Shown here: positions 1-806 of the stretch, piece by piece
Position numbering within the stretch: position 1 is the stretch's first letter
Layout of the letters: the number at the start of each line of letters is the position of its first letter
Source of the DNA: Escherichia coli
GTDB lineage: Bacteria; Pseudomonadota; Gammaproteobacteria; Enterobacterales; Enterobacteriaceae
Direction: 5' to 3' (one strand)
Length of the DNA stretch: 806 nt
Assembly (NCBI RefSeq): GCF_003334385.1
Contig: NZ_QOWN01000144.1
Translations under genes and position numbers: made by a program
Notes under the pieces: generated by a model
Databases searched by the model: none
What the model saw: only the letters and a program-made list of their open reading frames with translations
Told to the model about the DNA's origin: nothing

Positions 1-806
1 CATCCGATTCGGCATAAAAGGCTGCCTGGTCCTTAAGGCGTTCGCTCAGATACTGCGCGTTCTGTGCCCGTGCCTGTCTGTAAAAATCCTCACTGATATC
101 CCCGGTCTGATACTGAGACTGAAGGTCCGCATCCTTCTGGCGGAAGCTGTCGCGGATCTGCTGCAACTCCCGCATGCGTTCCCTGGCTCGTTCTCCCTGC
201 CCGTACCCCAGCAGTTCGGCTTCATTTGATGCACGCGCAGCCACATTATCATTCTTCAGGGTCTCTTCCCGGGATCGCAACTGTTCCCGGATTTTTTGCT
301 GGTCAATCAGGGCCGCGTTACGCAGCAGTTCCTGCTTCTGCATCTCCGTCAGGGTTTTCAGTTCGCCCTGCGCAGTCTGGTACTTCAGCTTCGCCAGCTC
401 TGTATTCTGACCCGCCAGTGCCAGTTGCTCTTTCTGCTGCTTCAGTAGCCGGGAAAAACTGTCTTCCGCTTTTTCCGTCTCTGATTTTCCACCCCGGGAT
501 TTAGGTTTGTTCGCCTCGTTATTACGCCAGGCTTCCAGAGCATTACTGATATAACGCTGTCTCGCCTCCTGATACGAATCCCCCACAAAACCAAGGTCAT
601 CCGCCGCATACCCCAGCCGGGCACGCTCTTTTTCCTCCCCCTTCAGTCGGGACAGGGCCAGCTCACGCTCTGTTTTTGTCAGGGCACTCTGCTGTTTATC
701 ATCCAGGGTGGCCTGTGGCAGCCGTAACGGTACATTCACCAGTCCCTGACGCTGCTGAAGCAGTTCATTCCCCAGCCCCAGCAGACGGTTGAATTCCGTA
801 TGCTGA
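1..806 (-). CDS. Partial CDS, internal fragment with both ends outside the window; probable phage tail length tape measure protein (lambda gpH-like), central helical/coiled-coil region
   Basis: Seen in sequence: the minus-strand frame with complete codons at 805..2 runs 268 sense codons with no stop, checked codon by codon. The same register on the plus strand contains TGA, TAG and TAA. Codon choice is enterobacterial-like: Gln almost always CAG (CAA twice), Leu mostly CTG. Composition is Q/E/L/R/A/K-rich with spaced hydrophobic residues, typical of long alpha-helical coiled coils. Inference: the product call rests on composition and on loose resemblance, recalled rather than searched, between the stretch ...NKPKSRGGKSETEKAEDSFSRLLKQQKEQLALAG... 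and the ...KKPKQSS...RQEDSAHAALLTLQAELRTLEKHAG... region of lambda gpH. No enzymatic motif is visible. Confidence that this is a real CDS is about 0.9; confidence in the tape-measure product is about 0.5. Confidence 0.7.

Follow-up and report, generated by a model that had tools for sequence, protein, structure and literature searches.

Residues 618-632 of an HK97-type tail tape measure protein (TMP), encoded in the 806-nucleotide stretch of Escherichia coli DNA analyzed here (henceforth the window), probably form a real and conserved break in the helical rod of this protein, as judged from predicted structures and homologue alignments. A first-pass annotation had flagged a less helical Pro/Gly-containing segment at window positions 716-805, that is, the first 30 residues of the encoded fragment. 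The break itself is present in both AlphaFold2 models, but it spans fragment residues 21-35 instead of 1-30: the non-helical part corresponds to window positions 701-745 and runs 5 residues past the flagged end, whereas helix is predicted for fragment residues 1-20, among them Gly607 and Gly609. Moreover, the segment was described as lying at an N-terminal end, which is an artefact of where the window was cut, as its 30 amino acids are residues 598-627 of 1088 and thus sit in the middle of the protein.

Read on the minus strand from base 805, the window contains a single open frame of 268 amino acids (window 1-805 translated), starting with QHTEFNRLLGLGNELLQQRQGLVNVPLRLP, and the remaining frames are stop-rich. 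The window protein matches residues 598-865 of WP_174147749.1 (1088 aa) with 100% identity; this protein is encoded by a prophage of E. coli SCU-104 in which the TMP gene is found at 3211-6477 of locus L001. At the nucleotide level, the window is 99.4% identical to phage Lys8385Vzw, in which the gene is annotated as a tape measure protein, and 97-99% identical to many Stx1/Stx2-converting phages, in which it is annotated as a tail tape measure protein. A survey of complete E. coli genomes revealed matches to the window DNA in 1280 out of 5426, with SCU-104 as top match (99.8%). The gene is therefore an already annotated and very common prophage gene.

The assignment to the HK97 type is supported by family profiles as well as by gene order. 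PHROG tape measure families match the window protein with E-values from 1e-62 to 1e-181. On the full TMP, Pfam identifies TMP_3 at residues 83-272, Phage_HK97_TLTM (PF06120) at 411-694 and Tape_meas_lam_C at 870-941; the PF06120 match, which establishes family membership and covers the flagged segment, has an E-value of 1.1e-74 and extends over model positions 3-292 of 295. DSSP analysis of the AlphaFold2 model assigns mostly helix from about residue 16 to residue 946, in combination with a TMP domain at the N-terminus and a lambda-type module at the C-terminus. Genes in the SCU-104 prophage are ordered as major tail subunit, assembly chaperone, protein T, TMP, M-like, L, K-like peptidase, I-like and gpJ, and the same order is found in Lys8385Vzw (L002) and HK97. 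Accordingly, the TMP gene has the HK97-type location between the tail assembly chaperone (G/T) and the minor tail/tip genes (M, L, K, I, J). Against NCBIfam TIGR01541 (tape_meas_lam_C), the 268 residues of the window, being only a fragment, score 43 bits, which is below the curated cut-off of 104.75; since the window stops at residue 865, this match is limited to model positions 2-142 of 332. By all family criteria testable, the window gene encodes an HK97-type tail tape measure protein.

Screening of both strands against Rfam at a permissive threshold yielded no RNA family in the window, and promoter and terminator scans of the window found neither element. The sole repeat family detected in the window (16 nt, two copies, 81% identity) is probably due to chance. 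A plus-strand ORF overlapping the segment (676-792, 38 aa, TTG start) was rejected as a gene, since the opposite frame is fully open and 100% identical to a known protein. Elsewhere in the SCU-104 prophage, a gene annotated as porin OmpC lies amid the tail genes, between the M-like gene and L (L001 7018-8181). It is missing at the same place in Lys8385Vzw and was, for this reason, considered to be a moron-type insertion.

The composition of the flagged segment is as originally described, with Gly at fragment positions 10, 12 and 21 (residues 607, 609 and 618) and Pro at positions 26 and 30 (residues 623 and 627). By itself, this composition is within chance expectation and proves nothing. The chance of finding at least five Gly/Pro residues in one fixed 30-residue window is 0.02-0.05, and 70% of the shuffled versions of the 268-residue fragment hold some 30-residue window with at least five. 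The segment has the lowest intrinsic helix propensity within TMP residues 540-870, with a mean Pace-Scholtz penalty of 0.57-0.61 versus about 0.32-0.45 elsewhere; the next-worst dip is located at residues 681-722.

Secondary structure was evaluated in two AlphaFold2 models: one of the full 1088-residue protein, based on alignment A1 (mean pLDDT 68.8), and one of residues 525-735, based on a partly different alignment, A2 (mean pLDDT 78.5). In the full-length model, DSSP assigns helix to residues 531-617 (87 residues), coil to 618-632 and helix to 633-649. The sub-region model gives nearly the same assignment, with helix at 530-616, coil at 617-632 and helix at 633-649. Checked for an uninterrupted helix by full-length prediction, as had been suggested, the stretch is thus interrupted in both models. 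The long helix preceding the break begins 67 residues upstream of the window; over its last part, residues 598-617, the full-length model has pLDDT values of about 58-64 and the sub-region model values of 74-78. Across residues 619-630, the full-length model stays below a pLDDT of 50; the sub-region model has its internal minimum, a block with pLDDT 55, over residues 615-624. The loop is a low-confidence element of monomer models whose pTM is low (0.36), and what these models show is not the confined oligomer present inside the tail tube. Coordinates of the features are listed below.

Features of the TMP gene in the window, given in window positions (residue numbers refer to the 1088-residue protein)
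Feature	Window position	Strand	Basis
Internal part of a gene for a phage tail tape measure protein (TMP), residues 598-865 of 1088	1..805	-	Frame open throughout
TMP 598-617 (QHTEFNRLLGLGNELLQQRQ), predicted C-terminal end of long helix, motif EFNRLLxxGNxLLxxR	746..805	-	Both AlphaFold2 models
TMP 618-632 (GLVNVPLRLPQATLD), predicted non-helical low-confidence linker, the actual break	701..745	-	DSSP coil, low pLDDT, homologue insertions
Pro623 codon ccg, best-conserved residue of the linker	728..730	-	Homologue conservation
Pro627 codon cca, second proline of the linker	716..718	-	69% conserved in non-redundant set
TMP 633-649 (DKQQSALTKTERELALS), predicted restart of helix, motif KQxxALxxxxRxLxLSxLxG	650..700	-	Both models; L648 at least 90% conserved
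TMP 696-705 (NKPKSRGGKS), second comparable Pro/Gly linker	482..511	-	Coil in both models

The break at 618-632 is the longest of about eight predicted within the window, the seven others being located at residues 650-652, 668-672, 696-705, 727-732, 743-750, 796-802 and 831-835. Past residue 633, the rod is modelled as a series of helices of 10-77 residues, with interruptions about every 15-80 residues. The central rod contains seven prolines (437, 476, 481, 526, 623, 627 and 698), each of which is in or adjoins a predicted break. The comparable linker at 696-705 adjoins the C-terminal limit of the PF06120 match and falls within the second propensity dip, and the largest insertion hot spot among homologues follows residue 695 (38 of 49 sequences, A1). 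Sequence and profile searches against the PDB gave nothing over residues 598-632, with matches confined to the TMP domain at the N-terminus and the lambda-type module at the C-terminus. Likewise, a Foldseek comparison of the sub-region model with the PDB gave no meaningful match (best E-value 2.5). Outside the window, residues 418-447 of the SCU-104 protein form a Gly-rich hydrophobic stretch (SGAASLLSLVGGIPGLLMLGAGAWY) with pLDDT below 50, of which 426-439 is predicted to be non-helical; this stretch resembles putative membrane-inserting segments of other tape measure proteins (PMC5099701).

Homologues were collected by an exhaustive, profile-free search, which returned 25,730 matches, of which the best 150 were considered. 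Alignment A1 consists of 49 sequences, namely 47 homologues among these 150 that span the region, the query and the Lys8385Vzw protein. A non-redundant set, thinned to at most 80% identity, holds 29 homologues. A protein search with the sub-region contributed little further diversity, most of its matches being short E. coli fragments. Over the 211-residue region (A2), mean column identity is 21%, and the only columns conserved at 90% or more are N603, P623 and L648. In the non-redundant set (n = 29), conservation amounts to 90% for N603, 84% for G609, 96% for N610, 83% for R616, 86% for P623 and 69% for P627. In A1, P623 is present in 26 of the 31 occupied cells, and overall it is about 86-90% conserved. 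At least one proline is found between N603 and K634 in 28 of the 29 non-redundant homologues. The length of this N603-K634 stretch ranges from 26 to 47 aa across homologues, and insertions cluster after residue 619 (15 of 49) and after residue 624 (19 of 49) in A1. Taken together, the conserved proline, the tolerance to insertions and deletions and the conserved helical flanks suggest that the loop has been kept as a loop by evolution.

Several proteins related to the query deviate in this region. One TMP variant (P0001, 705 aa) carries an in-frame deletion of about residues 366-748, which includes the flagged region entirely. If this variant were functional, a tail about one third shorter would be predicted, but an origin from a defective prophage is more likely. 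In a 780-residue chimera (P0011), the tape measure protein is joined in frame after the first 281 aa, with IYTLD directly followed by TEFNRLLGLG; the junction, at about residue 283 of the chimera, corresponds to TMP residue 600 or thereabouts (window position ∼797-799). The first 281 aa appear to be derived from a phage terminase large subunit. Probably, the chimera was left behind by a deletion in a decayed prophage from which the head genes have been lost. Some further database proteins (P0046, P0130) follow the TMP frame to about ...SRLKGE/K and then continue in an alternative minus-strand frame (e.g., ...SVSDWGMRRMTSVLWVIRIRRRD...), which is the frame of a 60-aa ORF at window positions 442-624 on the minus strand. 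These represent TMP pseudogenes of E. coli genomes that carry a frameshift.

Tape measure proteins sit within the tail tube and leave it ahead of the DNA. They act as rulers of largely α-helical structure, and deletions in them give proportionally shorter tails (PMC5099701). That their length sets the length of the tail, and that their ejection aids DNA entry, is known for lambda, TP901-1 and HK97 (PMC5099701, PMC12617516). The closest reference for the query is HK97 gp16, the founding member of PF06120, which is 1089 aa long compared to 1088 aa, shares 57% identity over the whole protein and has the same three Pfam regions and the same gene order (chaperone/T, TMP, M, L, K, I, J). Residues 480-700, approximately, are the most diverged between both proteins: HK97 has ...EMYDRLNKVSRQSTAVSPPKYAGPVLPALD where the query has ...EFNRLLGLGNELLQQRQGLVNVPLRLPQATLD, and is about 9 aa shorter there. 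At the position equivalent to the linker, HK97 gp16 carries a different sequence that is also Pro-rich (AVSPPKYAGPVLPALD), and both proteins have a Pro-rich non-helical stretch preceding a conserved L-D/N-x-KQQxA helix. In Stx-converting and other lambdoid E. coli prophages (e.g., phage Lys8385Vzw, Stx2 phage 1717, BP-4795), the window is 97-99.4% identical at the nucleotide level and the linker is identical, while the TMP alleles are mosaic upstream of residue 597.

Lambda gpH (PDB 8iyk/8iyl/8k35) fulfils the same role and shares the C-terminal module (query 751-1088 versus gpH 496-850, E = 1e-17), and in both cases the tube lumen is occupied by a ruler that is helical for the most part (PMC10721106, PMC12617516). 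There is, however, no detectable sequence match of gpH over query residues 598-627. The lambda TMP fills the lumen of the tube, with the C-terminal helix alone being resolved (PMC10721106); as this helix comprises residues 818-842/849, the gpH structures offer no counterpart of the linker (PMC10721106, PMC12617516). Following ejection, gpH* constitutes at least a major part of a trans-envelope or periplasmic channel, the density of which was fitted with AlphaFold3 hexamers of two separate gpH segments (PMC12617516).

The first-pass annotation proposed that the segment may mark a transition between an upstream domain and a long coiled coil further along the protein. In favor of such a boundary are the helix break itself, present in both models, and a seam between TMP alleles at about residue 597. 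Comparison of the SCU-104 and Lys8385Vzw TMP genes (L001 3211-5001 versus L002 3235-5001) revealed 40-75% nucleotide identity over residues 320-597 and about 99% from residue 597 onward, which places the junction at the start of the flagged segment (window position ∼805). In most E. coli genomes, alignment to the SCU-104 allele begins only at residue 538-541, shortly past a further predicted loop (525-530). With residues 397-797 as query, only 124 of the 1248 matching E. coli genomes have the SCU-104-type allele across 80% or more of its length. Allele mosaicism is common in phage tail genes, and the seam near residue 597 is a case of such mosaicism, not a fold boundary. The upstream side is the 87-residue helix 531-617 and not a different fold; both sides of the break belong to the helical rod, and the single PF06120 match spans it. 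Nor is a single long coiled coil predicted to follow, as the downstream part is split by the seven further breaks. The heptad-like pattern reported there appears weak: using a crude score of a/d positions in 28-residue windows (shuffled null with mean 0.28 and 95th percentile 0.50), most windows are within the null, and a few reach 0.5-0.68. A transition from a separate domain upstream to a long coiled coil downstream is therefore very unlikely. Alternatively, the Gly/Pro cluster could have arisen by chance within a helix that is continuous, perhaps kinked, when stretched in the tail tube. The frequency of equally Gly/Pro-rich windows in the shuffled fragments is in line with this possibility, as is the limited value of a monomer prediction for a confined oligomer. 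Yet the column of P623 ranks among just three that are near-invariant in a region of otherwise low identity, two prolines spaced four residues apart combined with local indel tolerance would be unexpected in a regular helix, and the same break is obtained from two alignments, which makes a fortuitous cluster unlikely.

A different explanation is that the conserved pattern EFNRLLxxGNxLLxxRxGL...P.R.PQAxLxxKQ constitutes an interaction or processing motif, serving tail chaperone binding, PtsG/FkpA binding or proteolysis. Conservation of the flanking residues N603, G609-N610 and R616 equals or exceeds that of the prolines, so selection may act on a binding motif instead of a passive hinge. In addition, HK97 injection requires PtsG, an inner-membrane protein, and FkpA, a chaperone of the periplasm, with the TMP being implicated, as summarized in PMC5099701 and bioRxiv 10.1101/2025.12.01.691526; these summaries attribute a reported interaction between the HK97 TMP and PtsG to Cumby et al. 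2015. HK97 gp16, however, lacks EFNRLLGLGN and has a different sequence at this position, and the motif can consequently not be the general PtsG/FkpA determinant of HK97. As for proteolysis, lambda gpH does undergo proteolytic processing, but near its Gly-rich C-terminal part and not in the middle of the protein (PMC12617516). An interaction or processing motif is, on balance, distinctly unlikely as the main explanation, and a conserved break in the helix is the reading we retain.

With respect to function, residues 598-617 would end a long α-helix, residues 618-632, with their two prolines, would break the rod, and the helix would resume at residue 633. Its most likely role is that of a flexible joint, with the loop linking rigid helical segments of the ruler. 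Such a joint would allow a rod of roughly 1100 residues to bend or to change helix register, be it while tail assembly chaperones hold the rod, when it is packed in the tube lumen, or on refolding after ejection, when the rod may contribute to the conduit that leads DNA through the cell envelope. A hinge or register-break role in assembly or ejection is inferred. A more far-reaching, and highly improbable, proposal is that the two-proline loop and its flanks (N603, G609-N610, R616, P623 and P627) form a functional switch, by which the rod would fold back on ejection to build the trans-envelope DNA channel, and that FkpA, a prolyl isomerase and chaperone, might act on the hinge.

Helix-breaking loops are to be expected in long helical rulers, and the loop at 618-632 is an ordinary feature of long helical tape measure proteins. 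The value of the present analysis is accordingly modest, in that the exact coordinates of the break are now 618-632 and not 598-627. Still, Pro623, N603, G609-N610 and R616 stand out as conserved in a fast-evolving, mosaic part of the TMP, and these residues are possible targets for dissecting how HK97-type tape measure proteins refold during DNA injection.
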